Part shown: piece by piece, positions 8,783-60,587 of the stretch
Layout of the letters: every line of letters starts with the position of its first letter
Position numbering within the stretch: the stretch's first letter is position 1
Assembly: GCA_024710705.1 (NCBI GenBank)
Contig: JANJUF010000056.1
Coordinates: 10,582-74,581, forward strand
Direction: 5' to 3'
DNA from: Gemmatimonadaceae bacterium
Lineage (GTDB): Bacteria; Gemmatimonadota; Gemmatimonadetes; Gemmatimonadales; Gemmatimonadaceae
DNA length: 64,000 nucleotides
The notes under the pieces: model-generated
What the model saw: only the letters and a program-made list of their open reading frames with translations
The model's database searches: none
What the model was told of the DNA's origin: nothing
Translations under genes and position numbers: made by a program

Positions 8783-8796
8783 GCCCTTCCGCTCCC

Positions 8797-11517: not shown

Positions 11518-11527
11518 GTCCAGCAAT

Positions 11528-11552
11528 TAAACTGTTGTCATATAACAACTTA
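11528..11552. promoter_or_regulatory. AT-rich symmetric site resembling back-to-back IHF-type sites
   Basis: TAAACTGTTGTCATATAACAACTTA; GTTGT/ACAAC dyad; CAA-N4-TTA on minus strand. Confidence 0.4.
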
Positions 11553-11574
11553 AGTCCAATTAGTTGACCTGTTA

Positions 11575-11603
11575 TTGTCCTTAGGACCAAGTAGTCCTAT
11601 TCT
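11575..11603 (+). promoter_or_regulatory. Sigma70-type promoter with palindromic operator in the spacer
   Basis: TTGTCC-N17-TATTCT; palindrome TAGGAC-N6-GTCCTA at 11582-11599; -10 ends 6 nt before GTG 11610. Confidence 0.7.
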
Positions 11604-11609
11604 TCGCTC

Positions 11610-12206: not shown

Positions 12207-12228
12207 TCGAAGTCCAGGGAGAACGCGC

Positions 12229-13456: not shown

Positions 13457-13492
13457 ACCGCGAAGATAGCGCGTGGCGTCTAGATTCGTCGC
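13457..13492. promoter_or_regulatory. 36-bp divergent promoter region with two back-to-back -10-like hexamers
   Basis: TAGATT 13481-13486 (+) and TATCTT 13468-13463 (-), each 6 nt from an ATG. Confidence 0.6.
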
Positions 13493-14026: not shown

Positions 14027-14027
14027 C

Positions 14028-41908: not shown

Positions 41909-44900
41909 TCACCGGTAATTGTGCCCCTTCACCGCATTCTCCCCCGCTCCGGCTTTGAGCGCCGTGAACTCCTTGGCGCGGATGTTGTACACCCCCTTCT
42001 CCACCTGCAGCGTCCCGCGCACCAACAGCAGCGGCGTGCGCGAGATCAGCATGGCCTGCGCCTCGAACCGCTGCGGGGTGATCACCACGTTGATGGTGCC
42101 GGTCTCGTCCTCGAGCGTGAGGAACACGAAGCCCTTCGCCGTGCCCGGGCGCTGGCGGCAGATCACGAGTCCGGCGTGGGCCACGGCATCGCCATCCTGC
42201 AGGCTGTGGATCTCGCGGGCGGTGCGCACGCCGTTGGGGCGCAGCAACTCGCGCACGTGCCACATGGGATGGCCATTCAATGAAAGGCCCGTCAGGCGAT
42301 AATCGGCCTCGGTGAGCTCGGGCGCCGAGAACCCGGGAAGCGCCGCCGGCACCTGCGACTCGGGAAAGAGCGCCAATGGCCCCGGTGCGCCACGTTCGGC
42401 TTCGAGCACCCGCCAGAGTGCCACGCGCCGCCGCCGCGCCGGCGGCTCGTCCTGCACGAAGGCATCGAACGCGCCCGACTCGGCGAGCGCGCGGAGCGCG
42501 CGGCGGTCGAGCTGGGCGCGCTGCACGAAGTCGGCGATCGATGCGAACGCGTTGGCACCCGTCTGCAACGCGCTCGCCAACTTGGCCTTGGCCTGCGAAC
42601 CCAGCCCGAGCACCGAGCGCAGGCCCAGCCGCACGACCGGCGCCGCGTTGCGTCCGGTGCCGGGTTCCAGCGTGTGGTCCCACTGGCTGCGCGTGATGTC
42701 CACGCCCCGCACCTGCACGCCGTGGCGCTTGGCGTCCTCGATCAACGTGCCCGGCGCGTAGAAGCCCATCGGCTGCGCGTTGAGGATCGCACAGAGGAAC
42801 TCGGGCGCGTAGTAGTGCCGCAGGAACGCGCTGGCATAGACGATGAGGGCGAAGCTCGCGGCGTGGCTTTCGGGAAAACCGTAATCGGCGAAGGCGTTGA
42901 TCTGGTTGTAGATCCTGAGTGCGATGTCCTCGGGGATGCCGTTGGCGCGCATGCCGTCGATCATGCGTTGGCAGATGTCGGCCATGCGCTCGCGGCTGCG
43001 CTTGTGCCCCATGGCCTTGCGCAGGAGGTCGGCCTCGCCGGGCGTGAATCCTGCCGCGGCGATCGCCACCTGCATGCCCTGTTCCTGGAACAGCGGCACG
43101 CCGAGCGTGCGCTTGAGGATGGGCTCGAGCGAGGGATGCGGATAGGTGACGTCCTCCTCGCCGGCCTTCCGGCGCAGGTAGGGATGCACCATGTCGCCCT
43201 GGATGGGGCCGGGGCGGATGAGCGCGACTTCCACGACGAGGTCGTAGAAGCAGCGGGGCTTGAGGCGCGGCAGCGTGTTCATCTGCGCGCGGCTCTCCAC
43301 CTGGAACACGCCGATGGTGTCGGCGCGGCAGAGGTCGTCGTACACGGCCTGGTCGGCGCAGTCGAGCTGGCCGAGGTCGAGGGTGACGCCGCGGGTGCGC
43401 CGGATGTACATGAGGCAATCCTGGACCACGGTGAGCATGCCGAGCCCGAGGAGGTCGATCTTCACGAGGCCCACCGGGTCGAGGTCGTCCTTCTCCCATT
43501 GGATGACGGTGCGGTCCTCCATGCTGGCGGGCTCGATGGGGACCACGGTGCGGAGCGGTTCCTGGGTGAGCACGAAACCACCGACGTGGATGCCGCGGTG
43601 GCGCGGCGCGGCGTCGAGCTGCTCGACGATGTCGGCGAGCTTGGCGACGCGTGGGTCGCTGGGGTCGAGGTTGGCGCGCTCGAGCAGTGTGGGTTCCTGC
43701 TGCGGCGGCCGCGCCGCTGACGGGCCGGCGGCGCCCGCGCTGGTGCGCCGCACCGCCTCCGGCGCGCCGCTGCGCACGGCCCGCAGCTTGCGATGTTCGT
43801 CGCGCGAGGCCTTGAGCAAGGTGCTCGCGTGCGTGCCCACCACGAGATCGCTCGATACCGCGTCCACGAGCGTCGCCGGGCGCAGCGCCAGCGCGCGCTT
43901 GGAATAGTTGGCCGGCCCCATGGCGTCGGCGCGCTCGGGTGCGAACGGATCGGACGCCTTCGCCGCGGCCTGCGTTGCTGCGTCGGCCTCGTGCCCCGGC
44001 GTGCCCAGGCGCAGCGCCGCCGCCGTGGCCTTGGCGCTGAAGCGATCGCTGAAGCTCGCCAGCACGCCTGCCTGCTCGGACGAGAATCCCAGTACGCGCG
44101 CCGCATCACGCACGGCACTGCGCCCGCGCCACGTGATGTGCTCGCACACCATCGCGGCGTGCTCGCGCCCGTAGCGCGTGTACACGTACTGCAGCACCCG
44201 CTCCCGCTCGCGGTGCGCAAAATCAATATCAATGTCCGGCGCCTCGGCGCGCTCCTCGCTCAGGAAGCGTTCGAACAGCAACTCCAGCTTCACCGGATCC
44301 ACCGCCGTGATGCCGAGGCAATAACACACCGCGCTGTTGGCCGCCGAGCCGCGCCCTTGGCAGAGGATCCCCTCGCGGCGCGCGAAGCGCACGATGTCCC
44401 ACACAATCAGGAAGTAGCCCGAGAGCCCGAGCTTGGCGATGAGCGTGAGTTCGTGCTCGAGCTGCCGGTCGTGGCGCGCCGTGCGACGCCATCCCCAGCG
44501 CTCCTGCGCCCCGTCTTCCACCAAGCGCGCGAGATACTCATCCTCGCTCACGCCGGGCGGCAAGGGAAAGTGCGGAAGCCGCGGCTTCAGTGCATCCAAC
44601 CGGAACGCGCAGCGTTCGGCGATGGCGAGCGTCGCCGCGAGCCCCGCCTCGCGACCGCTCCAGCGCTTGGCCAACTGCGCATAGCCCTTGAGATGCCACT
44701 CGCCGTTCGGACGCAGCTTGGTGCCCATCTCGTCGAGCGTGGCGCCGTGGCGCAGCGCCGAGAGCACGTCGTGCCCGAGTCGTCCCTGCGGCAAGGCGTA
44801 GTGTACGTCGTTGGTCACCACCCAGGGGAGATCGAGCCGCTGCGCCATCGGGATCAGCTGCTGCACCAAGACGCGCTCCTCGGGCAGCGCGTGGTCCCAG

Positions 44901-45469
44901 CACTCGATTGCCACGCGTCCATCGAAGAGCTCCCGGAGCTGGCCGGCTGCGTCCTGCGCCCGCGTGGCATCGCCGAGCGTGAGCAGTTGCGGTACCCAAC
45001 CGCGCGGGCAGCCGGTGAGGGCGAACAGTCCCGCCGTGTGCCCGCTCAGTTGCTCAACCGTCACGCGGGGTTCGCCGCGCGGATGATCCAGCCGTGCCCG
45101 CGTGATCAGCGAGCAGAGATTCCCCCAGCCCTCGCGCGATTCGCAGAGCAGCACGAGATGCGTGCGCAGGCGCGGCACGCCATCCTCGCCCACGACGCGC
45201 CCGGGAATGGCCACAACCCCGCGCTCGAGCCCCGGCGGTAGCGGCACATCCACCGTGAGCTCGGCGCCATGCAGGCCAGCAAGCCGCGCCTCCTTCGCGG
45301 CCGTCGCAAAACGCACCGCCCCGCCCACATCGTCGTGGTCGGTGAGGGCAAGGGCGTGCAATCCCAGCGCGAGAGCCCGCTCCACCAGGCGCTCCGGGTC
45401 CGACGCCCCATCCAATAAGGAGAAGGTGGAATGGCAATGCAGCTCGGCGTACCCGCCCAACGGGGTCAT
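41909..45469 (-). CDS. dnaE2: Error-prone DNA polymerase III alpha subunit
   Basis: YAELHCHSTFSLLDG, GRGSAANS, PDIDIDF, HVGGFV, KIDLLGLGML, YGFPESHA, LNAQPMGFY; ATG 45469. Confidence 0.95.
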   Translation of the reverse strand: MTPLGGYAELHCHSTFSLLDGASDPERLVERALALGLHALALTDHDDVGGAVRFATAAKEARLAGLHGAELTVDVPLPPGLERGVVAIPGRVVGEDGVPRLRTHLVLLCESREGWGNLCSLITRARLDHPRGEPRVTVEQLSGHTAGLFALTGCPRGWVPQLLTLGDATRAQDAAGQLRELFDGRVAIECWDHALPEERVLVQQLIPMAQRLDLPWVVTNDVHYALPQGRLGHDVLSALRHGATLDEMGTKLRPNGEWHLKGYAQLAKRWSGREAGLAATLAIAERCAFRLDALKPRLPHFPLPPGVSEDEYLARLVEDGAQERWGWRRTARHDRQLEHELTLIAKLGLSGYFLIVWDIVRFARREGILCQGRGSAANSAVCYCLGITAVDPVKLELLFERFLSEERAEAPDIDIDFAHRERERVLQYVYTRYGREHAAMVCEHITWRGRSAVRDAARVLGFSSEQAGVLASFSDRFSAKATAAALRLGTPGHEADAATQAAAKASDPFAPERADAMGPANYSKRALALRPATLVDAVSSDLVVGTHASTLLKASRDEHRKLRAVRSGAPEAVRRTSAGAAGPSAARPPQQEPTLLERANLDPSDPRVAKLADIVEQLDAAPRHRGIHVGGFVLTQEPLRTVVPIEPASMEDRTVIQWEKDDLDPVGLVKIDLLGLGMLTVVQDCLMYIRRTRGVTLDLGQLDCADQAVYDDLCRADTIGVFQVESRAQMNTLPRLKPRCFYDLVVEVALIRPGPIQGDMVHPYLRRKAGEEDVTYPHPSLEPILKRTLGVPLFQEQGMQVAIAAAGFTPGEADLLRKAMGHKRSRERMADICQRMIDGMRANGIPEDIALRIYNQINAFADYGFPESHAASFALIVYASAFLRHYYAPEFLCAILNAQPMGFYAPGTLIEDAKRHGVQVRGVDITRSQWDHTLEPGTGRNAAPVVRLGLRSVLGLGSQAKAKLASALQTGANAFASIADFVQRAQLDRRALRALAESGAFDAFVQDEPPARRRRVALWRVLEAERGAPGPLALFPESQVPAALPGFSAPELTEADYRLTGLSLNGHPMWHVRELLRPNGVRTAREIHSLQDGDAVAHAGLVICRQRPGTAKGFVFLTLEDETGTINVVITPQRFEAQAMLISRTPLLLVRGTLQVEKGVYNIRAKEFTALKAGAGENAVKGHNYR

Positions 45470-45527
45470 GTCGGGGTCCCGGCCCGGGCCGCGCAACAGG
45501 GGGTGACTCCTCTCACAGGACCCACCT

Positions 45528-46499
45528 ATGGCCCGCCATCGCCACTCTCTCCCCCAGCTCGCCCCCGTCCCCTTCGTCACCGATGGCGGAATCGAGACCT
45601 CCATGATCTACCACGAGGGACTCGACCTGCCCGACTTCGCCGCCTTCCATCTCCTGCGTGACGCCGACGGCACGGCCGCGCTGCAGCGCTACTTCCATGG
45701 CTACGCGAGCATCGCGGTACGCCACGGGATGGGACTGATCCTCGAGAGCGCGACTTGGCGCGCCAGTTTCGACTGGGGCCGACGGCTCGGCTACTCCTCG
45801 TCGAGGTTGGTGGATGTGAATCGCCGCGCCATCACGATGCTCGAGGTGATTCGCGCCGACGTCGCGACCTCGCGCACGCCGGTGGTGATCAGCGGTTGCG
45901 TGGGTCCGCGCGGCGATGGCTACGTCGTGGAGCGCGCGATGACCGCCGCTGAGGCCGAGCGCTACCATCGCCCACAGATCGCGACCTTCGCCTCCACCGT
46001 GGCCGATATGGTCACCGCCATCACGATGAACTACAGCGCCGAGGCCATCGGCATTGCCCGCGCGGCGCGCGCGGTGGGGATGCCGGTGGCGCTCTCGCTC
46101 ACGGTGGAAACCGACGGCCGGCTGCCCACCGGCCAACCCCTCGCCGCCGCCATCGCCGAGATTGACGCCGCCACGGAGCACTATCCGGCGTATTACATGG
46201 TGAACTGCGCGCATCCCACGCACTTCGCGCACGTGCTGGGCGACGGAAACCCGATCTGGATGCGCCTGCGCGGGATCCGCGCCAATGCGTCCCACGCGAG
46301 CCACGCCGAGCTCAATGCCATGACCACGCTCGACGCCGGCGATCCCGACCAACTCGCCGCCGACTACGCCGCGCTCCGCGCCGAGCTGCCGTGGATCACC
46401 ATCCTCGGCGGCTGTTGCGGCACCGATCACCGGCACCTGGAGGCGATCGCGAGTCAATCGTACCATCCTTGGAGCCGCCAGCCGCTGGCGTCGCGGTAG
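45528..46499 (+). CDS. Homocysteine S-methyltransferase family protein
   Basis: TDGGIET, GPRGDGY, VNCAHP, GGCCGTD zinc ligands. Confidence 0.9.
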   Translation: MARHRHSLPQLAPVPFVTDGGIETSMIYHEGLDLPDFAAFHLLRDADGTAALQRYFHGYASIAVRHGMGLILESATWRASFDWGRRLGYSSSRLVDVNRRAITMLEVIRADVATSRTPVVISGCVGPRGDGYVVERAMTAAEAERYHRPQIATFASTVADMVTAITMNYSAEAIGIARAARAVGMPVALSLTVETDGRLPTGQPLAAAIAEIDAATEHYPAYYMVNCAHPTHFAHVLGDGNPIWMRLRGIRANASHASHAELNAMTTLDAGDPDQLAADYAALRAELPWITILGGCCGTDHRHLEAIASQSYHPWSRQPLASR

Positions 46500-48031
46500 A
46501 GCAGGAGGTCCTGGCCGAGTTCGTCGCTCTCGCAGCGCCAGTAATCGCGGGCAAAGGGACGGGTCTGCCACCATTCGCCGGAGAGTCGTTCGGGGCCCTC
46601 GGCACGCGTGAGGGCGAGGCGTCGGCCGCGCCAGTGCATCTGGAGCGGCCTGCCCTGCTTGTCGGTGGTGATGGCCACAGGTTCCGGCGCTTCCAGCAAT
46701 CGCGCCGCCGGCGCCGGGCGCGCTGCCGCGGCGCCGTGGGCGCCGCGCATGCCGCTCTGTGTGCGCCCGTGCACGAGCGTATCCACAGGAGCGGCGCGCG
46801 CCGCCTGTTCCACGTCCACCCAGCCGCCGGCGCGCTCCGGGGCGTGCGAGTCGCGGGCGATGGGACGCACCACACTGCCCGCACCGAGTGCGGCGCGCAA
46901 TCGCGCGAGTGCCGCCTCGGCCGCGCCGGGATCGCGCCACGCCGAGGCGAGTAAATCGCCCTGCTCGGCGGCCGAGGGGACGCTCTCGCTCACGCGGAGT
47001 TCCACGGCGGCGACGGCCGCTTCGAGCGTCCAGGTATCGAGTAGCGCGCGGCAGCGTTCGAAGAGCGGCACCACCCGGGCGATGGCCCGCGCCGGGCGCA
47101 CCTCGCGCGTGACGCGGCGGCCGTCGTCGAGCGTGAGCGTGATGGTGAGCGCGGCGGCGGCGAGTCCGTCGGCCGAGAGCGTGCGCATGAGGCGCTCGAG
47201 CGAGGCGCGCAGGAGGAAGAGCACCGGCTCGAGCGTGGGCGAACTCGACGCGAGTTCGTGCACCACCACGCGCGGGTCGTCGCTGCGGGCGAGGGAGGCG
47301 CGGCGCGGATCGTCGGCGCAGGCGAGTCGCCAGGCGGCGAGTCCATCGCTGCCCCAGCGACGTTCCACCTCGAGGGGATCGAGTGCGGCGAAAGCGCCAG
47401 CCGTGCGCAGCCCGAGTGCGGTGAGGGCCTCGCGTAGGTCCTCGTCCATCGGGAGGAGCGCGATGGGGACGCGCGCGAGGTAATCGCGGTCGCCGCCGCG
47501 GGCGACGTACACCGGTTCGGTGGCGGCGCGGGCGCTCCAGGTGGCGGCGTGCGCCGTGACGCAGGTGTCGGCGATGGCCACGCGCGCACGCGGATGCCAC
47601 ACCTGCGCCAACGCGAGCAGCGCCGTCCCGAGCGCGCGTTCGCCACCGATGGCCTCGAAGCCATCGGCGCCGATCCACCAGGTGCCTGGCGCATCGCGCA
47701 CGGGACTCACCTGCGGGCTGGCCGAGAGGAAGGCCGCGCTGGCGCGGGCGATCTCGCGGGCGATGAGGGCCTGGTCCCAGGGGAGCGTGACGAGCGCGGC
47801 GCATTTCGAGCGTCCCTGCGGGACGGACATGCCGCTGCGCACGCCGGCGCGCGCGGCGTCGGCGCTCACCGTGCGAAGCCGCGTGCCGTCCACGAGGGCG
47901 ATCGCGCGCGCGTCCCAGTGCGGATCGACATCGGCGCGCGCGTCAGCGCCGGCGGCGCGCTGGGCGAGCCACGCCGCGCCGATCGGGAACCGCGGGATGC
48001 GCACACAGGCGACGCGCGATGTCGTGGGCAT
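46454..48031 (-). CDS. imuB: ImuB, catalytically inactive Y-family polymerase
   Basis: Y-family fold without catalytic acidic motifs; QGDLL clamp-binding-like motif; GPERLSGEWW..RDYW; GGAGG SD before ATG 48031. Confidence 0.88.
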   Translation of the reverse strand: MPTTSRVACVRIPRFPIGAAWLAQRAAGADARADVDPHWDARAIALVDGTRLRTVSADAARAGVRSGMSVPQGRSKCAALVTLPWDQALIAREIARASAAFLSASPQVSPVRDAPGTWWIGADGFEAIGGERALGTALLALAQVWHPRARVAIADTCVTAHAATWSARAATEPVYVARGGDRDYLARVPIALLPMDEDLREALTALGLRTAGAFAALDPLEVERRWGSDGLAAWRLACADDPRRASLARSDDPRVVVHELASSSPTLEPVLFLLRASLERLMRTLSADGLAAAALTITLTLDDGRRVTREVRPARAIARVVPLFERCRALLDTWTLEAAVAAVELRVSESVPSAAEQGDLLASAWRDPGAAEAALARLRAALGAGSVVRPIARDSHAPERAGGWVDVEQAARAAPVDTLVHGRTQSGMRGAHGAAAARPAPAARLLEAPEPVAITTDKQGRPLQMHWRGRRLALTRAEGPERLSGEWWQTRPFARDYWRCESDELGQDLLLYRDASGWRLQGWYD

Positions 48032-48647
48032 GACCCACCTCCAGGGACAAGGGGACATGTTGATGGGGGCCGCCCTTCTCGACCGTCGCGAGCACGGTCC
48101 TGGCATCGCGCCGCTTGAGCACGAGGCGCAACGCGCCGCCGATCTCCGAGGCACGGGTGCCGTCACCCAAGAGCAGGAGCGCGGCATCGGCATCGCGCGC
48201 GAGCTGGGCGAGGCGCACGGCGATGCTACGGGGCAGCAACGGCGCGCCATCGAGCACGACGAGCGCGAAGGATCCGGTGCGCAGCAGGAGATCGGCGCAC
48301 CAGGCGGCGCGCGCTGGATCGCCGGGTCGCACCACCCAAAGCGCATCGCTGCCGGCCGGATCCACCGTCACCCAATCGCGCGGATCGAGGGTGCGGGTGG
48401 CGTCCACCCAGGCCACCGTATGCCCTGCGGTGAGGGTGGTGCTGGCGAGGGTTCGGGCGAGGGTGGTCTTGCCGAGTCCGGCAGGGGCGAGGAGTTCGGT
48501 GATCCGTCCGCGCGGCAGTCCTCCACCGGGGAGGGCGGCATCGAGTGCGCTCAGTCCGGTGGGGAGTCCCGGCGTCGCACTCGGCGTACCGGCGACGACC
48601 GCGGCGAGCTGCTCACGCAGGACCTGCAGGTTGTGGGCGAGGGCCAT
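47943..48647 (-). CDS. imuA: ImuA (RecA-like)
   Basis: PTGLSALDAALPGGGLPRGRITEL, GLGKT, WVD, LVVLD; directly upstream of imuB. Confidence 0.85.
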   Translation of the reverse strand: MALAHNLQVLREQLAAVVAGTPSATPGLPTGLSALDAALPGGGLPRGRITELLAPAGLGKTTLARTLASTTLTAGHTVAWVDATRTLDPRDWVTVDPAGSDALWVVRPGDPARAAWCADLLLRTGSFALVVLDGAPLLPRSIAVRLAQLARDADAALLLLGDGTRASEIGGALRLVLKRRDARTVLATVEKGGPHQHVPLSLEVGHAHDIARRLCAHPAVPDRRGVARPARRRR

Positions 48648-48887: not shown

Positions 48888-49481
48888 CTACGCGTGCGCG
48901 GCGAGCCGCTGCTCGAGCCGCGCGCGCACCGCCGGCCATTCGCTGGCCAGGATGCTGAACATCACGGTGTCGCGCGCCGAGCCATCGCGGCGCGCCTGGA
49001 AGTGGCGGATCACCCCATCGCGCTGGGCGCCGAGTGCGGCGATGGCCGCCTGCGAGCGCGTGTTGGCGATGTCGGTGCGCAGGCCCACCACCGCGCAGCC
49101 GAGCGTGTCGAAGGCGTGCGAGAGCAGGAGCAGCTTGCAGGTGGTGTTCACGTGCGTGCGCTGCCAGCGTGCGCCATACCACGTATAGCCAATCTCCACG
49201 CGATCGATGGCCGGGACGATGTCGTGATAGCGCGTGCTGCCGATGACGGCACCGCTCGCCGTGTCGCGCACGGCCCAAGGGAGCATCTGGCCCTCGGCCT
49301 GGCCTCGCAGGGCGTCAGCGATGTACGTCGCGACCTCGTCGGGGCGCGGCACCGAGGTGAACCAGAGTTCCCACAGCGCGCCGTCGCTTGCGGCGGCGGC
49401 GAGTCCCTCGGCGTGCGCCGTGCCGAGTGGTTCGAGTTGCACTCCACCGGCGGCGAGGGAGACGGGCGCTGGGACAATCAT
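48888..49481 (-). CDS. GNAT family N-acetyltransferase (RimJ/RimL-like)
   Basis: VEIGYTW, QRTHVNT, NTRSQAAIAALGA, RDTVMFSIL. Confidence 0.9.
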   Translation of the reverse strand: MIVPAPVSLAAGGVQLEPLGTAHAEGLAAAASDGALWELWFTSVPRPDEVATYIADALRGQAEGQMLPWAVRDTASGAVIGSTRYHDIVPAIDRVEIGYTWYGARWQRTHVNTTCKLLLLSHAFDTLGCAVVGLRTDIANTRSQAAIAALGAQRDGVIRHFQARRDGSARDTVMFSILASEWPAVRARLEQRLAAHA

Positions 49482-49496: not shown

Positions 49497-51425
49497 TCAG
49501 CCGAGCTCGGCCAGGAGCTGGAGCAACTCGGCGGCGCTCCCGGGCCGCCCCTCCGGGGCCTTGGCGAGGAGCCGCATCACCAGCGCGGCGAGGGCCGGCG
49601 GCACGTCGGTTGCGCTGCCGCCGATTGGCGCCGGAGGCGTGGAGAGCACCTTCGCGATCAGCGACACCATGGACGTCCCATAGAACGGCGGCTTGCCCGT
49701 GAGGCATTCGTACAGCACCACGCCGAGCGCGTACAGATCCGCGCGTTCGTCCACTTCCTCGCCGATCAGTTGTTCGGGCGCCATGTACGCCGGCGTCCCG
49801 ACCATCACACCGCTCTCGGCGTTGGCCGAAGCCGCCGCGATGCGGGCGATGCCGAAGTCCATGACCTTGAGCACGCCGGCGTTGTCGAGCAGGGCGTTCT
49901 CGGGCTTCACGTCGCGGTGGATGATGCCGGCGAGGTGCGCGACCACCAGCGCCTCGGTGAACTGCCGCGCCACGGCGAGGGTGCTGGCGGCGCCGAGTCG
50001 GCCGCGCGTCTCGAGGAGTTCGCGCACGGTGAGCCCTTCCACGAACTCCATCGTGACGAAGGCGATGCCGTCGGCCTCGCCGAGGTCGTGGGTGCGCACG
50101 ACGTTGCGATGCGAGATGCGCCGCGCGAGACGGATCTCCGACTTGAGCTGTTCGGCGAGCACCGGATCGCCCGAGAGCAGGTCGCGGCGGATGGTCTTGA
50201 TGGCGACGTCCTCGTCGAGCTCGCGGTCGTGGGCGCGGTACACCACGCCCATGCCGCCGCGGCCGACGACGCCGCGGATCTCGTAGCGGGCGGCGAGCAG
50301 GGCGCCCGGACTGAGGGTGTCGGTCTCGCTGTCGGTCGATGCCAGCACGGTGCGATGCTCGTTGGTGGCCATCGAGACGTCGGCCCGAAGCTGACTGAGC
50401 TGTTCGCGCAGCTTGGACTCGCGGGCGCGCACGCCGGCGGCCATGGCGTCGAACACGCGGGCGAGGCGCCCGAGTTCGTCGTCGCGGGCGCTGATGGGGC
50501 CGAGCGCACCGGACTCGTAGGTGCCCTTCTCGACCGCGGCGGCGGCCTCGATGACGCGCGTGACCTGGCGCAGGTAATCGGCCTCGCGGTCGTGCCAACG
50601 CTTCTTCTCCAGCGAGGCGCCGATGCGCGCCCGGAGCAGGACCTGGTCGAAGGGCTTGGCCAGATAATCCTCGGCGCCGTGCTCGATGCAGCGCACCACC
50701 GAGGCGATGTCGTCGAGCGCCGAGATCATGATCACCGGGAGATTCCGGGTGGCCTCGTGGGATTTGATGCGCTCGAGGACGGCGAAGCCGTCGAGGTCGG
50801 GCATGCGCACATCGAGGAGTACGAGGTCGAACCCTCCTTCCGCGACGCGCGCGAGGGCCTCAATGCCGCCGGCGGCGCCGTCCACCTGGTAGCCCTCGCG
50901 CGCGAGCCGCCGCGAGAGCACCGCGCGATTCTCTTCGACGTCATCCACCACCAGGATGCGTCCCCGCCGCTCGGCGACGGCCACGGCCAGCGGCGTCGAG
51001 TGGCGGGGCAGGGGCGGCGCGGAGGGCTGCTCGACGATGTGCGCGCGCTCGTTGGCCTCGGGGAGCGAAAGCAGTTGCTGCGCGGCACGGGCAATCTTCT
51101 GCACGTCGGCGGCGAACTGGGCCTCGGGTGAGCCATCGAGGAGCGCCGACGTCGCCAGCAGGATCGTCGCTTGCGGCGAACGCAGCTTGGCGAACAGGCG
51201 CGGCAAGGCATCCTCGGCGGCGACGCCACTGGGTGGCAGGGCCGCGTTGATCAGCACCAGGACCTCGTGCGCCGCCACGCCAATCGTTCGCAGCGCCTCG
51301 GCCGCCGCTGAGTTCGGCTCCACGTCCTCGGCGAGGAGCTCGGCATATCCGAGGATGTGATTGACCGGAGTGCGCAGTTCGTGCCGGAGCTCGCCGGTGG
51401 CGTGCGCGTCGAGCACGTCGCTCAC
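49497..51425 (-). CDS. HisKA(DHp)-receiver-HAMP-like-Ser/Thr kinase fusion protein
   Basis: HELRTPVNHILGY; REC VDD...LLDVRMP...AKP; RDDELGRLARVF; kinase GRGGMG, VAIK, HRDVKPEN, DFG, APE. Confidence 0.9.
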   Translation of the reverse strand: MSDVLDAHATGELRHELRTPVNHILGYAELLAEDVEPNSAAAEALRTIGVAAHEVLVLINAALPPSGVAAEDALPRLFAKLRSPQATILLATSALLDGSPEAQFAADVQKIARAAQQLLSLPEANERAHIVEQPSAPPLPRHSTPLAVAVAERRGRILVVDDVEENRAVLSRRLAREGYQVDGAAGGIEALARVAEGGFDLVLLDVRMPDLDGFAVLERIKSHEATRNLPVIMISALDDIASVVRCIEHGAEDYLAKPFDQVLLRARIGASLEKKRWHDREADYLRQVTRVIEAAAAVEKGTYESGALGPISARDDELGRLARVFDAMAAGVRARESKLREQLSQLRADVSMATNEHRTVLASTDSETDTLSPGALLAARYEIRGVVGRGGMGVVYRAHDRELDEDVAIKTIRRDLLSGDPVLAEQLKSEIRLARRISHRNVVRTHDLGEADGIAFVTMEFVEGLTVRELLETRGRLGAASTLAVARQFTEALVVAHLAGIIHRDVKPENALLDNAGVLKVMDFGIARIAAASANAESGVMVGTPAYMAPEQLIGEEVDERADLYALGVVLYECLTGKPPFYGTSMVSLIAKVLSTPPAPIGGSATDVPPALAALVMRLLAKAPEGRPGSAAELLQLLAELG

Positions 51426-51793
51426 GATCCCGGACCGAGGAGTGCGGCCATCTTCCCGAGGAGCCGTTCGAGGTCCACCGGCTTCGTGTCATAGTCGTTG
51501 CAGCCGGCGTCGAGGGCCTTGTCGCGGTCGCCCGACATCGCGTGGGCGGTGAGGGCGATGATCGGCACGTCCCTGCCGCGGGCATCGGCGCGGATCCGGC
51601 GCGTGGCTTCCCAGCCGTCGATCTCCGGCAGGCTCATGTCCATCAGGATGAGGTCCCAGCCCCCTTCGAGTGCCCGGGTGACGCCCTCGGCGCCGTCCAC
51701 GGCGATCTCCACCACGTGTCCGCGTCGCACCAAGCGACGCGAGAGCATGTCGCGGTTCATCTCATTGTCTTCGACGAGCAGGATTCTGGGCAT
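51422..51793 (-). CDS. Single-domain response regulator (DivK-like)
   Basis: VEDN, LMDMSLP, LTAHAM, TKP. Confidence 0.93.
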   Translation of the reverse strand: MPRILLVEDNEMNRDMLSRRLVRRGHVVEIAVDGAEGVTRALEGGWDLILMDMSLPEIDGWEATRRIRADARGRDVPIIALTAHAMSGDRDKALDAGCNDYDTKPVDLERLLGKMAALLGPGS

Positions 51794-51800
51794 CAGTCGG

Positions 51801-54800
51801 TCAGGGCGTGGACGGTTCGCGACGGCGCATCAGGAGGCGGATGTCCCGCACCAGGTCGAACTGCGAGTAGGCTCCCTTGGTGAGCACGTCGCTGACGTGG
51901 CCGTTGAGCCGCTCGCGCTCCTCGCGCGTCAGGTCCTTGGCCGTGACGACGACCACGGGGATGTTGCGCCAGGCCTCGACTTGCCGGAGTTCGGAGACGA
52001 ACTCGCCGCCGTCCATCACCGGCATCATGAGGTCCAGCACGATGAGCGCCGGCGTGACCTCCTGCAGGCGCTCCAGGGCCACGCGGCCGTTCTCCGCCTC
52101 GACCACCGTCCAGCCTTCGCGCTCGAGCCCCCGACGGAAGGTCTGCCGCACGGCGATGTCGTCTTCGACCACCAGCACGACGCCATCGGCTGGGTCGGCT
52201 CGGTGTTGGCGAAGGATGCGGCGTAGCTGGGCGCGGTCGATCGGCTTGGTGACATACTCGGTGGCGCCGAGCGCGAGTGCCATCTGCTGCTCGTGCAGGA
52301 CCGAGAGCATGATTACCGGCACGTCAGCGAGGGAGTCATCCTCGCGGATGCGCTGCAGCACCTCCCAGCCGTCCATGCCCGGCATGAGGATGTCGAGCGT
52401 GATGGCGTCGGGGCGATCGGCGCGCGCCATCTCGAGGCCGACCACGCCGTCGGTGGCTTCGAGCACTCGGAAGCCGTCGTTGGCGAGCACGGTCCGGAGC
52501 AGGCGCCGTGCGTCGGCGTCGTCATCGATGATGAGGACGGTGCCGGCGCTCCCGTCGCCCTGCAGTTCCGGAATGTCGATCGCCCGCAGGGAGGTCGTGA
52601 CACGTCGCGCGGTCTCGACGCGCAGCGGGAGGCGCATGGTGAAGGTGGATCCGATGCCGGGTTGGCTCTCCACCGTGACTTCGCCGCCCATCATCTCGGC
52701 GAAGCGCCGGGTGAGGGCGAGGCCGAGCCCGGTGCCGCCATAGCGACGCGCGGTGGAGGACTCGGCCTGGCTGAAGGCCTCGAAGAGCCGTCCCATCTGC
52801 TCGGGCGTCATGCCGATGCCGGAATCGCGCACGGCGAACTCGAGCATCGGGCCACGGGCGCCGTCGCTGCGACGCACGGCAATGCTGATGCGGCCATTCT
52901 CGGTGAACTTGCAGGCGTTGGACAGCAGGTTCAGCAGCATCTGCCGCACTTTCACGAGGTCGGCGTGCATCAGACCGAGTTCGCTGTCGCGCGTGAGCGT
53001 CAACGTGTTCGCATTCTTCGCGACCATGGGACCGATCGTGGTGCGCACCTCCTCCAGCATTTCGGCCACGTCGAAGGTCTCGAGCACGAGGTCCATCTTC
53101 CCGGCCTCGATCTTCGAGAGGTCGAGCACGTCGTTGATCAGCGCCAGCAGGTGCTTGCCGGCGGTGTTGATCTTGCCGAGGTCGGCGATGAACGAATCCA
53201 GGCCCGCGTCCTGCGCCTCCTCCTGCAGCATCTCGCTGTACCCGATGATGGCGTTGAGCGGGGTGCGCAGTTCGTGGCTCATGTTGGCGAGGAACTGGCT
53301 TTTGGCGCGATTGGCCCCTTCGGCGTCGCGGCGCGCCTCGGACAGTTCACTGATGTCGTGGTACATCCCCATCAACGCCACGCGTGACTCGTCGGCAATG
53401 ACGGGCACGCCAAGGATCTCGACTTCGACGAAGCTGCCGTCCTTGCGCCGCCGCCGACCGATGCCCTTCACGGCGCGGTCCACGGCGTCGCGGCTGTACT
53501 GCGCCGCCTCGCCGAGGGTGGCGGGGTCGGTGATGAGCTCATCGAGATTGCGGCCGCGTGCTTCGTCCTCGTCGTAGCCGAAGAGCTGTTCGAACGCCGG
53601 GTTGCACGACGCCACGTTGTAGTCGGTGTCCAACTGCACGATGGCGACGGGGGAGTTGTTCAGCAGGCTGCGGAAGAACTCGCGCTGCCGCGCGGCCTCC
53701 TCGTAGAGGCGTGCGCCCTCGATGGCGATGGCCGCCTGCGGCGTGAAGAGATTGAGCAGGCGGACGGCGTCGTCGGTGAACTCGCGCGTGGACTTGGCGT
53801 CCACCATGGCGATGGCGCCGACCAGTCGTCCGTCGATGAGCAGCGGGGCGGCGACCACCGACTTCACCGGTACATCGCTGTACTTGGCTGACTTGCCGAT
53901 CCAGGCGTGATAGTCCGGCACGATGAGCGGCTGCTTGGATTGCGCGACGAGCCCGAGTGCACCCTCGCCGAGCCTGAGCCGGATGCCGGACGTGTCGGTG
54001 CCGATCTGGTGGCTGGCGGCCACGTAGAGCTCGCCCCGCGCCGCATCGAAGATCGCCAGCTCGCCGCCGGTGACGCCGAGCAGGGCGACGGCGCGCTCGA
54101 GCGTGGCTTGCAGGGTGCGCGAGAGCTCTCGTTGCGTCAGGAGGTCGGACATCGAGGCGAGCACGGCCTCGTGCTCGTCGGCGCGTTGCTTCTGGGCCAC
54201 GATGAGGCGGGCCCGCGCGATGGCGATGCTCGCTTGGTTCGCCGCGGCCGTGAGGATCTCGAAGTCGCTCTCGTCGAAGGCGTCGGGTTCGGTGCTCTCC
54301 ACCGCCAACACGCCGATCACCTCGCCATCGATGACAAGGGGGATATCCACTTCGGAGCCGCTGTTGAGCGTGGGCTCGTAGGTGGATTCGCGACGCACCT
54401 CGGGCGTGTAGTGCAGTTGCTTCTCGAGTACGGCGCGCTCGGTGATGCCGTGACCCTTGGCGAGCCGGAAGCCGGGCTGCGCGGCGGTCCATCCCACCGA
54501 GGCCACCATCACGCGGTCGCCCGTGGGCGGATCGATGAGGAAGACGCCGAGGAAGGCGTAGCCAAGCGCATCGTCGCGGAGGCCGTTGACGACGCTTTCG
54601 CAGATCTCCTGTTCGTTGGTGGCGGCGGCGATGGCCGAGCTGAGTCGGAGCAGGGCCGATTGGCGACGGGCAATTCCATCGTCGCGGAACGCCGTACGCG
54701 CCTTTGCCTTGACCTTCGCCTTCGGCGGGGCCTTCACTCGCGCCTTGGCATTCGGCTTCGTGCCGCGCTTGGAAATGGCCTTCCGCTTCTTCGCCGCCAT
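51801..54800 (-). CDS. Soluble hybrid sensor histidine kinase GAF-GAF-PAS-HisKA-HATPase-REC-REC
   Basis: [30 protein letters not shown]; two REC domains; two GAF-like and one PAS ([10 protein letters not shown]) region; no TM. Confidence 0.93.
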
Positions 54801-54876: not shown

Positions 54877-56004
54877 CTACACGGCGGCGGGCTGCGCGAA
54901 AGCCGGTGCCATCAACCCGGCCTTCGAGCGCCCGTGCGGATCCTGGCCGGCGCGGATGCGGTTCACCATCTCCAGCGCGGTTTCGGTGAGCGGCGGCAGC
55001 TCCATCGGGCTTTCCCCCACAGGAGTCACCCGCGTCCCCCACTTCACCAGGAGCGAACAGTACGTAAGCCCACCGCCGAAAGCGGGCATCAGGAGCCAGC
55101 TCCCGGGTCGCACGCGCCCTTCCTCCAGCGCTTCCACCAGCGCCACCGGTACGGTCGCGGCGCTCATGTTGCCGTACTTCTGCACCGTGAGCATCACTTT
55201 CTCCATCGGGATGCCGGCGTACTTGGCCACCGCCTCGATGATTCGCAGGTTGGCCTGGTGTGGTACCACCAGCGCGATCTGCTCGGCCGTGACACCCTGC
55301 GCCTCGAGCACCCGCTTGGAGGCGTCGGCCATGCCGTGGACGGCGCGCTTGAAGATCACCTGGCCGTCGAAGTCCCACAGCGTGTCGCCGAAGGTGATGC
55401 CGAGCCCGGAGTAGCCGCAGCCGAAGCCGCGCACGCGGAGCGAATCACGCGCCTCGGCGTCGCAGCCCATCACGGCGCCGAGCATGCCTTCCTCCTTCGC
55501 CGAGGCCTGCAGCACCACCGCCGCCGCGCCATCGCCGAACAGCACCGCCACGTTGCGGTTGCTCCAGTCCATGTAGCGGCTGATCAGCTCCACCCCGATC
55601 ACCACGGCGTTCTTCACCAGCCCGGTGCGGATCATGGACGTCGCCGTGGCGAGCCCGTAGCAGAAGCTCGTGCAGGCGGTGTTGAGATCGATGCTCGCGG
55701 CCTTCGTCGCGCCGAGCGCGAGCTGCACGCCGGACGCGGAGTTCGGGCAGAGCTCCTCGTTGCTGACGCCGCCGTAGATGATGAGATCCACGTCGGCGGC
55801 CGCGAGCCCGGCGCAGGCCAGCGCCCGCGACGCGGCGATCGTGCTCATCTCCACCGCGCTGACGTGCGAGATGCGGCGCTCCTTCATCCCCGTCCGCGAC
55901 GTGATCCACTCGTCGTTGGTGTCGAGGAAGGTCGCAAGGTCCTCGTTGCTGAGGACGGCGGGTGGCATGCACTTGCCCCAACCGGTGATGGCGGCGTAGG
56001 TCAT
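54877..56004 (-). CDS. 3-oxoacyl-ACP synthase III (FabH-family condensing enzyme)
   Basis: Cys-His-Asn triad: ACTSF, PHQAN, GNMSAA; LFGDGA. Confidence 0.9.
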
Positions 56005-56017
56005 GGTGGGCGACGGC

Positions 56018-56419
56018 TCAGGCGTTGGGGACGATGGCAGTGGCTTCGATCTCGACGACGGCGCGCGGTTCCATCAGCGCCGTGACTTCCACGGCGGTCA
56101 TGGCCGGGAAATGCCGGCCGATCACCGCCCGATAGACTTCGCCGAGCTCGCGTCCGGCCGCAAGGTAGGCGGCCCGATCGGTGACGTACCACGTGAGGCG
56201 CACCAGGTGTTCGGGGCGCGCCCCGTCGGCCGCCAGCACGGCGACGATGTTCTCGAGCGCCTGCTTGGCCTGCGCCACCAGCGCATCACCCACCAACCGC
56301 TGCTCGGCGTCCCAGCCGATCTGGCCGGCCACGAAGATCGTGCGGCCGCTGGCGCTCACGCCGTTGGCGTAGCCCTTCGGGCGCGCCCAGCCTTCGGGCT
56401 GAATCACACGATGGTTCAT
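56018..56419 (-). CDS. RidA/YjgF family protein
   Basis: KGYANG, VAGQIGW, FPAMT, VEIEATA. Confidence 0.9.
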   Translation of the reverse strand: MNHRVIQPEGWARPKGYANGVSASGRTIFVAGQIGWDAEQRLVGDALVAQAKQALENIVAVLAADGARPEHLVRLTWYVTDRAAYLAAGRELGEVYRAVIGRHFPAMTAVEVTALMEPRAVVEIEATAIVPNA

Positions 56420-58074
56420 TGCGGCTCCTTGAGGCGGAAGCGCTGCAGCTTCCCGGTGTCGGTCTTGGGGAGCGCGGCCACGAACTCCACGAGCCGCGGA
56501 TACTTATAGGGTGCGATGGTCGCCTTCACGAACTCCTGGATGCTCCGCGCGAGCGCGTCGCTCGCCTCCACGTCGGGTTTCAGGACGATGAAGGCCTTCA
56601 CCGCCTGCCCCCGGTCCTCGTCGGGCACGCCGACCACCGCGCACTCGAGCACGGCCTCGTGCTGGAGCACCGCCGACTCGACCTCCGGCGCGCCGATGTT
56701 GTAGCCTGAGGAGAGGATGAGATCGTCGGTGCGCGCCTTGAAGAACACGTAGCCCTCGCCGTCCATCATCGCCGCGTCGCCGGTGAGGTTCCATCCGTCG
56801 CGCACGTAGTCGCGCTGGCGCGGGTCATTCAGGTAGCGGCATCCGGTAGGGCCGCGCACGGCGAGGCGCCCCACCGAGCCCATCGTGACCGGCTGCAGCT
56901 CGTCGTCCACGATGGCGACTTCGTAGCCCGGCACGGCGCGTCCGATGGCGCCGGGGCGCACATCCTTCCCTTCGGCGGCGATGAAAATGTGGATCATCTC
57001 GGTGGCACCGATGCCGTCGAGCATCTCGATGCCCGTCTCCTGCCGCCAGAACGTGCGCGTCGCATCCGGCAACGCCTCGCCGGCGGAGACGCTGGCCCGC
57101 AGCGACGCGGTGGACCAGCGCCCACGCCCACGGGCCAACGCCAGCGCCATCTGCCGGTAGAACGTTGGCGCGGTGAAGCTGATGGTGGCGCGCGTGGCCT
57201 CGATGGCGTCGAGCAGCAGTTCGGGCGTGGCCTTCTCGATGAGCACCGCCGCACCGCGCGCCGCCAACGGGAAACAGAGCAGGCCGCCGAGCCCGAACGT
57301 GAACGCCAGCGGCGGCGTGCCGATGCAGCGATCGCTGGCCCGCGTGCGCAGTACCTGCGCCGAGAATCCGTCGCACATCGCCATCACGTCGCGATGGAAA
57401 TGCATGCAGCCCTTCGGCAATCCCGTCGTGCCCGAGGTGAAGGCGATCAGGCACACGTCGTCTCGGCTGGTGGCAACGGGCACGAACGGCGCCGCGTGCT
57501 TCGCCATCCGCGCCTCGAGTCCGTCGGCGCCATCGCCGCCCCAAAGACAGACGGCGCGCACGCTGCTGTCAGCGTCGATCGCCTCCTGCAGTTCGGCAGC
57601 GAGCCGCGCGTCGCAGAGCGCCGCTTGGCACTTGGCTCGCTCGATGATCACGCGCAGTTCCTTCGTGCGGAGCAGCGGCATGGTCGTCACCGCAACGAGT
57701 CCGGCCTTGATCGTCGCCAGCCAGGCCGAGGCCATCCAGCGGCCATTGAATCCGCGCAGGAGCACGCGATTCCCTGGCACAAGGCCGAGCTCCGCCGTGA
57801 GCACGTGCGCAATGGCGTCCACCTGGCGTTGGAGCTGCGCGTAACTCACGTCCACCCAACTATCCCCCGCCGGCACCACCAGGGCAGGGGAATCCCCGTG
57901 CCCCTCGCGCACCGCATCGTCGAGCAGGCGCTCGGCGGCGTTGAGGCGCTCCGGGTAGTCGTACGGTGGCTCGCGGTGCATCACCGGCCATTCCTCGGCC
58001 GGTGGAAGCTGTTGGCGCGGCCAGTGGTCCACGTGCGCGCTGGGCGCGAGATCCTTCGGGGCGGCGGTGGGCAT
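56416..58074 (-). CDS. 2-aminobenzoate (anthranilate)-CoA ligase-like AMP-binding enzyme
   Basis: FTSGTTGLPKG, PPLAFTFGLGG, DGIGATEMIHIF, RGPTGCRYL, KYPR, TGKLQR; abm-type context. Confidence 0.85.
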   Translation of the reverse strand: MPTAAPKDLAPSAHVDHWPRQQLPPAEEWPVMHREPPYDYPERLNAAERLLDDAVREGHGDSPALVVPAGDSWVDVSYAQLQRQVDAIAHVLTAELGLVPGNRVLLRGFNGRWMASAWLATIKAGLVAVTTMPLLRTKELRVIIERAKCQAALCDARLAAELQEAIDADSSVRAVCLWGGDGADGLEARMAKHAAPFVPVATSRDDVCLIAFTSGTTGLPKGCMHFHRDVMAMCDGFSAQVLRTRASDRCIGTPPLAFTFGLGGLLCFPLAARGAAVLIEKATPELLLDAIEATRATISFTAPTFYRQMALALARGRGRWSTASLRASVSAGEALPDATRTFWRQETGIEMLDGIGATEMIHIFIAAEGKDVRPGAIGRAVPGYEVAIVDDELQPVTMGSVGRLAVRGPTGCRYLNDPRQRDYVRDGWNLTGDAAMMDGEGYVFFKARTDDLILSSGYNIGAPEVESAVLQHEAVLECAVVGVPDEDRGQAVKAFIVLKPDVEASDALARSIQEFVKATIAPYKYPRLVEFVAALPKTDTGKLQRFRLKEPQ

Positions 58075-58086
58075 CGGGGATGTCCT

Positions 58087-59244
<1,158 letters not shown>

Positions 59245-59245
59245 C

Positions 59246-60094
59246 TCAGTTCCCCTCGAACTGTGGTGCCCGCTTGGCCGCAAAGGCTTCGTAGGCGCGT
59301 CGGAAATCCTGCGTCCCCATGCAGATCGCCTGCGCCTGCGCCTCCATCTCCAACGCCTGCTCCAGCGGAAGGCTCCACTCCTGCAACAGCATCCTCTTGG
59401 TCATTGCGTGCGCGAAGGCGGGCCCGTTGGCGAGCGCCGCGGCGCGCCCCTGCGCCTCGGCGAGCAATGCGTCGGGTTCGACGATGGCATTGAAGAATCC
59501 CCAACGCTCTCCTTCGGGGGCGTCCATGTCGCGGCCGGTGTAGAGCAACTCGGCGGCGCGTCCCTGTCCGATGATGCGTGGAAGGATGGCGCAGGCACCC
59601 ATGTCGCAGCCGGCGAGTCCCACCCGCGTGAAGAGGAAGGCCGTGCGCGCGCGGGGTGTGGCCAGGCGCAGGTCGCTGGCCATCGCGAGAATGGCGCCGG
59701 CGCCCGCCGCCACGCCATCCACCGCGGCGATGATCGGTTGCGGCGCGCGGAGCATCGCCAGCACGAGGTCGCCGGTCATGCGGGTGAAGGCGAGCAGCTC
59801 GGGCTCGCTCATCTCCGTGAGTGGCGCGATGATCTCGTGCACATCGCCGCCGGAGCAGAAGTTGCCCCCGGCGCCGGTGAGCACGATGGCCCGCACATCC
59901 GACGCGTACGGCAGCTCGCGGAAGAGGTCACGCAGTTCGGCATAGGACTCGAACGTGAGCGGGTTCTTTCGTTCCGGCCGGTTGAGCGTGATGGTGCCCA
60001 CCCGTCCGTCGGCGGAGACCGACCATTGGAAGTGGGCGAATGTCCGTGCCGCGAACGGGCGCCGCATCGCGGTGATGGGATCAGGAGCGCTCAT
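59246..60094 (-). CDS. Enoyl-CoA hydratase/isomerase (abm cluster)
   Basis: [31 protein letters not shown]; ATG 60094. Confidence 0.9.
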
Positions 60095-60587
60095 CGGGTC
60101 TCCGGGTGGGGCGCACGCGCTGCTTGAGGGTGCCAAGCGCGCCCTGCAGGGCGCGTCGTTCGGCGGGAGCCAGGGTGTCGAACAGGTCGGCGATCAGTCC
60201 TTCGTGCATGCGGGCCATGGCCTCGAAGTGGCGTCGGCCCGCCGTGGTCAGCCGGACGACGGTTGCGCGGCGGTCATCTGCATCGGGGCGCCGCTTCACC
60301 ATACCCTCGCGCTCCAACGCCGCCACGAGCCACGTCACATTCCCGTTGGTGGTCAGCGTCCGCTCCGAGAGTTCCCCCATGCGGAGTCCGTCAGGCACGC
60401 GGTGCAACTGCGCCAAGAGGTCGAAGCGCGGAAGCGAGGAGCCGAACTCCCGCTTGAGCGCGCTGTCCACGGTGCGCTGCACCATCGTCGTGGCCGTGAA
60501 GAGCCGCAGCCAGAGGCGCAGCGCATCGTGGTCATCGTGCGCGAGGCGCGACTCGGGATCCAGCAGGCGGGCTGCCGTCGCGCCCAT
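60081..60587 (-). CDS. MarR family transcriptional regulator
   Basis: [31 protein letters not shown]. Confidence 0.9.

Follow-up and report, generated by a model that had tools for sequence, protein, structure and literature searches.

A three-gene His-Asp locus in a Gemmatimonadaceae bacterium with a tandem-DHp, receiver and Hanks-type kinase fusion as its putative output

The locus described here lies on the minus strand of a 64,000-nucleotide stretch of DNA from a Gemmatimonadaceae bacterium (the window; GCA_024710705.1, contig JANJUF010000056.1, positions 10,582 to 74,581) and consists of three intact open reading frames (ORFs) that may form a phosphorelay ending in a Ser/Thr kinase. The first gene (51801-54800) encodes a soluble hybrid histidine kinase of 999 amino acids with the Pfam order GAF-GAF-PAS-HisKA-HATPase-REC-REC, in which HisKA covers residues 499-567, with His509 within an HELRTP box, and HATPase_c covers residues 614-727, ahead of two Response_reg domains. 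The second gene (51422-51793) encodes a single-domain receiver of 123 amino acids, with Response_reg as its only Pfam domain and with Asp52, Thr82 and Lys104, while the third (49497-51425) encodes a 642-residue fusion made of tandem dimerization and histidine phosphotransfer (DHp) hairpins, a linker, a receiver (REC), a HAMP-like coiled coil and a Hanks-type kinase. Seven bases separate the stop of the sensor kinase gene from the ATG of the single-receiver gene, which in turn overlaps the fusion gene by GTGA. This layout and the domains of the hybrid kinase agree with an earlier reading of the window made from its letters alone (hereafter, the sequence-only reading). At its start the sensor kinase ORF has some 38 residues (54687-54800, minus strand) that are basic and of low complexity, with much Lys, Ala and Pro, and its true start codon may be farther down.

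In the fusion protein, Pfam places HisKA at residues 13-61 (41.8 bits, cut-off 26.9), Response_reg at 157-268, HAMP at 286-333 and Pkinase at 381-635 (E 1.4e-48), and finds no HATPase at E 0.1; in the structural model the receiver follows a flexible or disordered linker of low predicted local distance difference test score (pLDDT) at residues 124-150. The architecture is that claimed by the sequence-only reading, and among the 120 top relatives found for residues 1-345, which include the window's own record, HisKA, REC and Pkinase occur together in 118; the two exceptions are a partial record and a 432-residue fragment that ends within the kinase N-lobe. The named best relatives all belong to Gemmatimonadaceae or Gemmatimonadota. 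The relatives search, together with a profile search of the phylum in which 15 candidates per genome were scored, provided loci from 44 distinct genomes. The kinase is in the same frame as the H-box in 42 of these, the remaining two loci stopping at a contig edge; the REC-HAMP-kinase spacing is likewise preserved in 42, and the single receiver stands directly upstream of the fusion in 43, the miss again stopping at a contig edge. The profile of the N-terminal domain matches at least 55 of the 301 genomes of the phylum at E 1e-12 (this genome included), at least 45 of them over the whole domain. Furthermore, contigs from a run of a second study span the region from the H-box to REC (50726-51422) and that from the end of REC through HAMP to the kinase (49852-50723). 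Since the relatives, the in-frame loci and the bridging contigs all concur, a misassembly, a danger that the sequence-only reading had itself named, is ruled out, and so is a chance fusion. All 116 full-length members retain His15, Thr19, Asn22, D161, D162, D205, K257, K410, E430, R504, D505, N510 and T544, and have Ser or Thr at receiver position 235; judging by such conservation, His15, Asp205 and the kinase motifs are evidently under strong selection.

The N-terminal unit, the repeated nature of which the sequence-only reading overlooked, is composed of two tandem DHp hairpins, with a His on the first only. Hairpin 1 (51240-51407, residues 7-62) carries His15 (codon 51381-51383), Thr19 and Asn22, and hairpin 2 (51075-51209, residues 73-117) is a degenerate repeat with Ala79 at the position of the His. 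When residues 66-130 are aligned with the DHp of the upstream sensor kinase, the score is 49 (z 6.0, with 0 of 1000 shuffles as high) and Ala79 replaces the His, while the alignment of the two hairpins with each other is weak (z 1.9). Among seven cyclase-type cassettes from other families of the class, two HisKA stretches are recognized by Pfam in six, and the His is on hairpin 1 in five, on both hairpins in L064 and on hairpin 2 only in L062. The AlphaFold2 model of the full-length fusion (pLDDT 87.7; predicted template modeling score, pTM, 0.68) has helices at residues 7-32, 40-62, 73-97 and 102-117, and the monomer model of residues 1-126 is a compact set of four helices (pLDDT 92.8, pTM 0.87); the two hairpins are thus predicted to fold as one single-chain four-helix bundle. 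An ordinary DHp bundle takes two chains, and here two hairpins on one chain would rebuild it with one active face. The best fold matches of the 1-126 model are single-chain four-helix bundles of unrelated function (Z up to 13.7), that is, generic ones; Foldseek returns no match for the N-terminal model at E 0.001, and the Hpt profile is unmatched in the fusion at E 0.1, the HisKA profile being matched instead.

The same kind of unit was followed in 150 tandem-DHp representatives drawn from a search of 1.84 billion proteins, a sample that favors His-bearing, double-hit proteins. The hairpin patterns are HH in 67, Hx in 28, single H in 19 and H? in 13, plus others, and in just four representatives (patterns xx, xxH and ?x) is no His detected in the ATPase-less hairpins. 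Three proteins (P0244, P0250 and P0284) place two or three successive tandem DHp pairs ahead of a REC-cyclase, with the His on the second hairpin of each pair. The sequence-only reading had taken the ATPase-less DHp to be a phosphotransfer site of the ChpT/Spo0B type. The part of this that stands is the conserved His (His15, invariant) in a DHp helix without an autokinase domain, for which PhyT provides a close precedent (PMC5898713). By contrast, the catalytic-domain remnant that follows the DHp in ChpT, Spo0B and PhyT is absent, a second helical hairpin taking its place. Because it is a tandem, probably single-chain, DHp pair without such a remnant, the unit is not a member of the ChpT/Spo0B family.

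The fusion receiver (50622-50957, residues 157-268) has all the canonical residues, namely the acidic pair D161/D162, the phospho-Asp D205, S235 and K257, and its nearest solved relative is PleD REC1. The following segment (50427-50570, residues 286-333) scores 18.3 bits against a Pfam cut-off of 25 and is therefore called HAMP-like, while the kinase-less relatives P0148 and P0128 exceed the cut-off with 27.4 and 29.6 bits. In the model, a single helix (261-300) begins as the last one of the receiver and continues into the HAMP-like segment, and another long helix (317-357) leads to the kinase. The kinase domain (49521-50285, residues 381-635) keeps all core motifs (GRGGMG, K410, E430, HRD, N510, DFG and APE) and has PknB as its best PDB match (6b2p, E 1e-54), so that, by its motifs, it is classed as a Hanks-type, PknB-like Ser/Thr kinase of the RD type. 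Its nearest paralogs in this genome, with 52-56% identity, are the Hanks kinases of two membrane proteins (G000 C69:31869-33893 and C33:1967-4222), each of which also has a HAMP-like segment and an extracytoplasmic region. In a tree of 41 kinase domains, 16 fusion kinases and these two receptors form one clade (100/99), separate from 23 other kinase domains of this genome; the kinase lineage therefore already sits below a HAMP, and since the branching within the clade is unresolved, the tree leaves the direction of domain exchange undecided. The segment from the REC tail to the HAMP scores 224 and 219 to kinase-less proteins, values that include the shared receiver tail, versus 65 and 59 to the receptors. 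Like PknB-type kinases, the fusion ends in an RD kinase with all core motifs, and its HAMP-like segment lies upstream, where the membrane receptors have a HAMP, but it has no membrane anchor or PASTA domain and its input is a receiver.

The single receiver is 60-87% identical to 32 counterparts from several phyla, with E8, D9, D52, T82 and K104 invariant in the 33 sequences, and is likely to be a phosphate shuttle. The label "DivK-like", used for it in the sequence-only reading, is a loose one: DivK is among its PDB matches (E 1.8e-19), but as one of 24 and not the best. Nor does the DivK-PleD pair recur, as the fusion contains no GGDEF or second receiver and the PleD model scores 122.9 bits against a cut-off of 474. 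Across cassettes, one to four GAF-PAS kinases in a row precede the single receiver, and in P0085 and L060 the single receiver is fused to the N-terminus of the fusion. The latter locus also has, beside its cassette, a kinase-histidine kinase hybrid of 2041 amino acids (8730-14852; Pkinase-AAA-GAF-HisKA-HATPase-REC-REC), which is transcribed away from the fusion that absorbed the single receiver and shares the cassette type of receivers; hybrids of this kind are already known (PMC1183210).

As reported for EnvZ and RstB, specificity between kinase and receiver is dominated by three kinase positions (EnvZ T250, L254 and A255; PMC2991266). In a set of 44 loci, the residues N/G/Y at positions +7/+11/+12 from the His are shared by 54 of the 57 kinases and by 39 of the 45 ATPase-less hairpins, and the present sensor kinase has them as well; among the seven H-boxes parsed in this genome, only those of the cassette kinase and the fusion have them. 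The extended code N/G/Y-E-M is present in 32 of the 36 kinase DHps and 15 of the 17 bundles of the kinase-output loci. On the receiver side, the residues compared are N/R/R in helix 1, at +5, +11 and +12 relative to the first acidic residue. Single receivers have them in 36 of 39 cases and output receivers in 30 of 46, and none of the 53 kinase-internal receivers does; of the 48 receivers of this genome 44 were parsed, and the only 2 with N/R/R are those of the cassette. The two His sites thus seem to share one docking code and the two Asp sites the matching one, with the hybrid's own receivers outside it. These counts bear on the route implied by the sequence-only reading, of the CckA-ChpT type, in which the C-terminal receivers of the hybrid kinase would donate to His15 and the single receiver would be a side branch. 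Both receivers of this kinase have intact Asp/Lys motifs, and hybrid kinases typically have relay intermediates in their C-terminal receivers (PMC9981736), but the absence of N/R/R from kinase-internal receivers speaks against them as donors, and 17 of the 36 kinases in 17 kinase-output loci carry no receiver of their own, L052 showing a single receiver-less kinase within the 16 kb retrieved. Since so many of these kinases have none, the likely donor is the single receiver, and the CckA-ChpT type of route is improbable. Structure prediction points, weakly, to docking of the single receiver on the bundle: the complex scores 0.41 versus 0.10 for the best control, the runs share at least 94% of contacts and the partners have a pLDDT of at least 87. 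The mark applied is passed by 116 of the 157 solved pairs and also by 2 of the 215 mismatched ones, and at scores of 0.60 or less by just 18 solved pairs and both mismatches; the pass may also stem from likeness, since DHp-REC complexes are solved.

We give an even chance to the trio being a four-step His-Asp-His-Asp relay, with the last two steps and the output on one protein. One to four sensor kinases would phosphorylate the single receiver, here from His509 to Asp52; Asp52 would pass the phosphate to His15 on the predicted bundle, and His15 to Asp205 of the tethered receiver, whose state would switch the Ser/Thr kinase via the HAMP-like coiled coil. In this way, a run of several GAF-PAS kinases would feed one shuttle in most relatives. 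PknB-like kinases are activated by dimerization, and phosphorylation may turn the kinase on by dimerizing or re-registering the coiled coil, which, as a dimer, would transmit the state of the receiver. The tethered bundle may also shield the fusion receiver from direct phosphorylation, as PhyT does for PhyR. This direction of flow, as we infer it, has its closest parallel in the Pak-SdrG-PhyT-PhyR system of Sphingomonas melonis, in which several soluble kinases, a single-domain receiver, a non-autophosphorylating His-bearing DHp protein and a terminal receiver act together. There the Pak kinases recognize both receivers, phosphorylating SdrG as well as PhyR in vitro, and the flow takes the order Pak-SdrG-PhyT-PhyR, the transferase PhyT holding the terminal receiver PhyR (PMC5898713). 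PhyT, however, is a membrane protein in its own right, belongs to the HWE/HisKA_2 type and has an ATPase domain that is degenerate, and the output of its relay is sigma-factor mimicry (PMC5898713), whereas here the putative transferase is a tandem HisKA pair without an ATPase remnant, joined to the terminal receiver and to a Hanks kinase.

Several observations weigh against such a relay. The 50 listed VIA-align fold matches include no HPt or DHp, a result that is neutral as to both. Hybrid-type kinases often have N and G at +7/+11, and one other kinase of this genome has N/G/F. The N/R/R positions, which presumably correspond to positions of OmpR, were picked after the match was seen, in loci that are kin and hence not independent. 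The single receiver has IALTAH, invariant in the 33 sequences, in place of the FATGUY motif that after beta-4 marks several shuttle receivers (PMC9981736). Moreover, the shared recognition code means that the sensor kinase should also fit the fusion receiver directly. Locus L088 contains a kinase, a single receiver and a same-code REC-cyclase, without a DHp or room for one, so that a receiver of this family can evidently be phosphorylated directly, and in L090 a REC-PP2C with the same code and no DHp lies 3 kb away; the bundle is therefore dispensable in some cassettes. (L105, considered as a further DHp-less case, was dropped, its output receiver having a different helix-1 code.) The E-x-x-T box, invariant here, is what HisKA phosphatases use. 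The same conserved residues would thus also fit a drain or phosphatase role, and a phosphatase role has been raised for ATPase-less HisKA proteins (PMC5847659).

The main alternative is direct activation with a built-in drain: the sensor kinases would phosphorylate the single receiver and, in parallel, Asp205, and the latter would be dephosphorylated by the tandem DHp, by hydrolysis or by reverse transfer via His15 to the single receiver as a sink, thereby setting the threshold or shut-off time of the kinase. The N/G/Y-E-M code common to kinase DHp and bundle and the N/R/R common to both receivers are as expected for it, the invariant Thr19 of the E-x-x-T box fits a phosphatase, and a natural eraser exists in RedE, which takes phosphate from one receiver and dephosphorylates another (PMC2755868). 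On account of the DHp-less cassettes L088 and L090, the E-x-x-T box and RedE, the drain is a serious possibility, though a doubtful one. The phosphatase activity of RedE in vitro needed ADP or ATP and not its His (PMC2755868), whereas the fusion has no nucleotide-binding domain and has kept the His; the scarcity of His-less hairpins (4 of the 150 representatives, in a His-biased sample) points the same way, and PhyT, first read as a phosphatase, proved to be a forward transferase (PMC5898713).

Two further explanations do without phosphate on His15 or without a switchable kinase. In the first, the bundle would be an allosteric sensor or clamp, and its binding to the single receiver or to the fusion's own would be all that controls the kinase. 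DivL binds DivK~P, and DivL is among the PDB sequence matches of the bundle profile (E 1.4e-5); the nearness of the fusion receiver to PleD REC1 may likewise echo the divK-pleD pair. Nevertheless, His15 is invariant in 116 of 116 members and relatives have the His on either hairpin or on both, which fits selection for chemistry over a fixed contact, and a clamp is hence considered unlikely to account for the unit. In the second, this lineage would have a kinase that is constitutive, weak or dead, with the upstream module acting as a scaffold or via another partner. The activation-loop Thr536, present in 113 of 116 members, is replaced by Ala here and in the two closest relatives, which also counts against the relay, and it is common for DHp-REC-HAMP proteins to stand alone, with a short tail in place of an enzyme. 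Yet all catalytic residues are kept, Ser533 and Ser538 of the activation loop remain in this protein and the REC-HAMP-kinase spacing is maintained in the genomes given above, so that an inactive or unregulated kinase is very improbable.

The proposed relay can be set beside other known systems. In Bacillus, phosphate passes from KinA-E via Spo0F and Spo0B to Spo0A, and both this relay and CckA-ChpT-CtrA of Caulobacter have the His-Asp-His-Asp flow through a DHp-type four-helix bundle that is proposed here. Spo0B and ChpT are named as dimeric degenerate kinases (PMC5898713; ChpT also in PMC9981736): they are homodimers of separate proteins derived from whole kinases, whereas the fusion has two hairpins on one chain, one His and an enzymatic output. 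CbbRRS of Rhodopseudomonas palustris similarly comprises three proteins, a hybrid kinase, the phosphotransfer-plus-receiver protein CbbRR1 and a further regulator, but the accessible text on it describes no Ser/Thr kinase output (PMC3018481; PMC2755868). In RedCDEF of Myxococcus xanthus, a kinase-like protein takes the phosphate of a receiver on a His and controls a single-domain receiver; unlike the fusion, however, RedE retains its HATPase domain and acts as a phosphatase on RedF (PMC2755868). Finally, the "HisKA, no HATPase" proteins of an archaeal census, some with a HisKA-REC layout, are ATPase-less with a conserved His; they were catalogued but untested, with phosphoacceptor, transferase or phosphatase roles proposed, and the accessible portion of the census mentions neither tandem hairpins nor a kinase output (PMC5847659).

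That the output domain might be exchanged among homologous operons was a guess of the sequence-only reading which neighborhood comparison and a domain scan now confirm. The scan, at E 1e-8, covered the 61 of the 150 representatives with at least 400 residues: 24 have an adenylate/guanylate cyclase, 23 an HATPase (a further kinase), 6 a SpoIIE/PP2C (one of them also a cyclase), 3 a Hanks kinase and 1 an AAA_35, and 5 have no domain at this threshold. The contigs of named genomes were scanned for the best 80 of 607 stretches, of which 48 (L071-L118) were examined as a sample. Among the matches listed, the order kinase, single receiver and DHp-REC-output recurs in, for example, a deltaproteobacterium, Methylocystis, SAR116 and Bryobacterales, and shorter contigs from Chthoniobacterales, Beta- and Gammaproteobacteria and Opitutaceae show the last two genes; the outputs listed are mostly cyclases, with one SpoIIE, and the six DHp-REC-HAMP-Hanks kinase loci are all from Gemmatimonadota. 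Within the relatives and loci examined, a Hanks kinase output is seen only in this phylum, while kinase-less DHp-REC-HAMP proteins of about 350 residues with a short conserved tail are present in others. By these architectures, the tandem-DHp-REC module is evidently a unit of many phyla with exchanged outputs. An unrelated REC-GAF-Pkinase protein in Holophagales (L100) indicates that receiver-kinase fusions of other builds exist.

Some minor observations concern these relatives. Kinase-less DHp-REC-HAMP or REC-HAMP proteins (P0129, P0148, P0157, P0180 and others), many of them single-hairpin, have a conserved tail of about 35 residues, for which P0148, the one scanned, gives no Pfam match. In L063-L068, from other families of the class, the tandem-DHp-REC-cyclase gene is mostly on the opposite strand, converging on the kinase array; most of these copies carry a membrane-like segment at the N-terminus, and in several the cyclase domain is weak (62-84 bits) and may be degenerate. 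L079:4902-6413 and L095:648-2111 encode a tandem DHp-REC followed by about 200 residues unmatched by Pfam at E 1e-6, which look alike in the two loci and would be an output domain of another kind.

In a broader, more tentative reading, to which we give somewhat less than even confidence, tandem DHp pairs would be an undescribed, widespread class of single-chain histidine phosphotransferases, the portable last half of a relay, which in Gemmatimonadota would sum up to four sensor kinases into Hanks-kinase activity in the first same-chain His-Asp-to-Ser/Thr relay; the tandem DHp would have arisen by duplication of a kinase hairpin and been fused before a receiver, a step held with the same reserve. 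If so, the two main bacterial phosphorylation systems would be linked within one protein, in a small soluble three-protein system where a His-Asp relay directly sets a eukaryote-like kinase and where the coupling could be reconstituted and measured. It would also draw attention to a phosphotransfer unit which, in domain censuses, counts as a lone or incomplete HisKA and which is found in many phyla before cyclases, PP2C and second kinases, and the direction of flow, once settled biochemically, would annotate all tandem-DHp-REC proteins. Variants with the His on hairpin 1, on hairpin 2 or on both would show a route from the symmetric DHp dimer to an asymmetric one-chain carrier.

The sequence-only reading had spoken of an undescribed signaling system. 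In the open literature, with subscription journals and supplementary census tables outside the scope, no paper was found on tandem DHp-REC proteins, on this fusion or on a REC-Hanks kinase that had been tested, and that much of the claim holds; the relay logic itself is of a known kind, and what is unusual is the tandem single-chain DHp carrier with a Hanks-kinase output on one chain. Galperin's response-regulator censuses of 2006 and 2010 reportedly list REC-Ser/Thr kinase fusions as rare outputs, so that a plain REC-kinase arrangement may be on record there. Some response regulators are noted to have enzymatic outputs with ties to Ser/Thr phosphorylation (PMC9953108), and the accessible text of PMC12189002 and PMC9953108 describes no such fusion. 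The trio is apparently an unstudied, lineage-wide variant of a known relay type.

As to the surroundings of the trio, G+C content is even over the whole window, about 0.66-0.74. A promoter and terminator scan gave no promoter-like and one terminator-like site, within shuffle expectation, and among the 25 best-listed NCBIfam models per trio protein none reaches its cut-off. One metatranscriptome run yielded two contigs (256 and 182 bases), both on the sensor kinase gene only, which do not in themselves show transcription. No conserved downstream substrate gene was found: 156 ORFs, 152 within 3.5 kb downstream in 16 loci and 4 from the window, gave one cross-locus pair. The flanking genes are unrelated to the trio, with a 3-oxoacyl-ACP synthase III gene and an aromatic-catabolism-like cluster upstream, and a GNAT gene and an imuA-imuB-dnaE2-like cassette downstream. 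The upstream cluster (54877-63711, minus strand) contains a flavin monooxygenase/oxidoreductase fusion, a short-chain dehydrogenase-like ORF, a MarR regulator, an enoyl-CoA hydratase, an acyl-CoA dehydrogenase, an AMP-binding ligase, a RidA-family protein and the FabH-like gene, and its gene content suggests aromatic-acid CoA catabolism. The GNAT acetyltransferase gene (48888-49481, minus strand) begins 15 bases past the fusion stop and has no match downstream of the fusion in 16 other loci. Beyond it, the mutagenesis cassette (41909-48647, minus strand) encodes RecA-like, IMS and DNA polymerase III alpha proteins, with a homocysteine S-methyltransferase gene (45528-46499) on the plus strand between imuB and dnaE2, and its dnaE2-like polymerase has a long insertion within the NTPase domain, which Pfam reports as two stretches.

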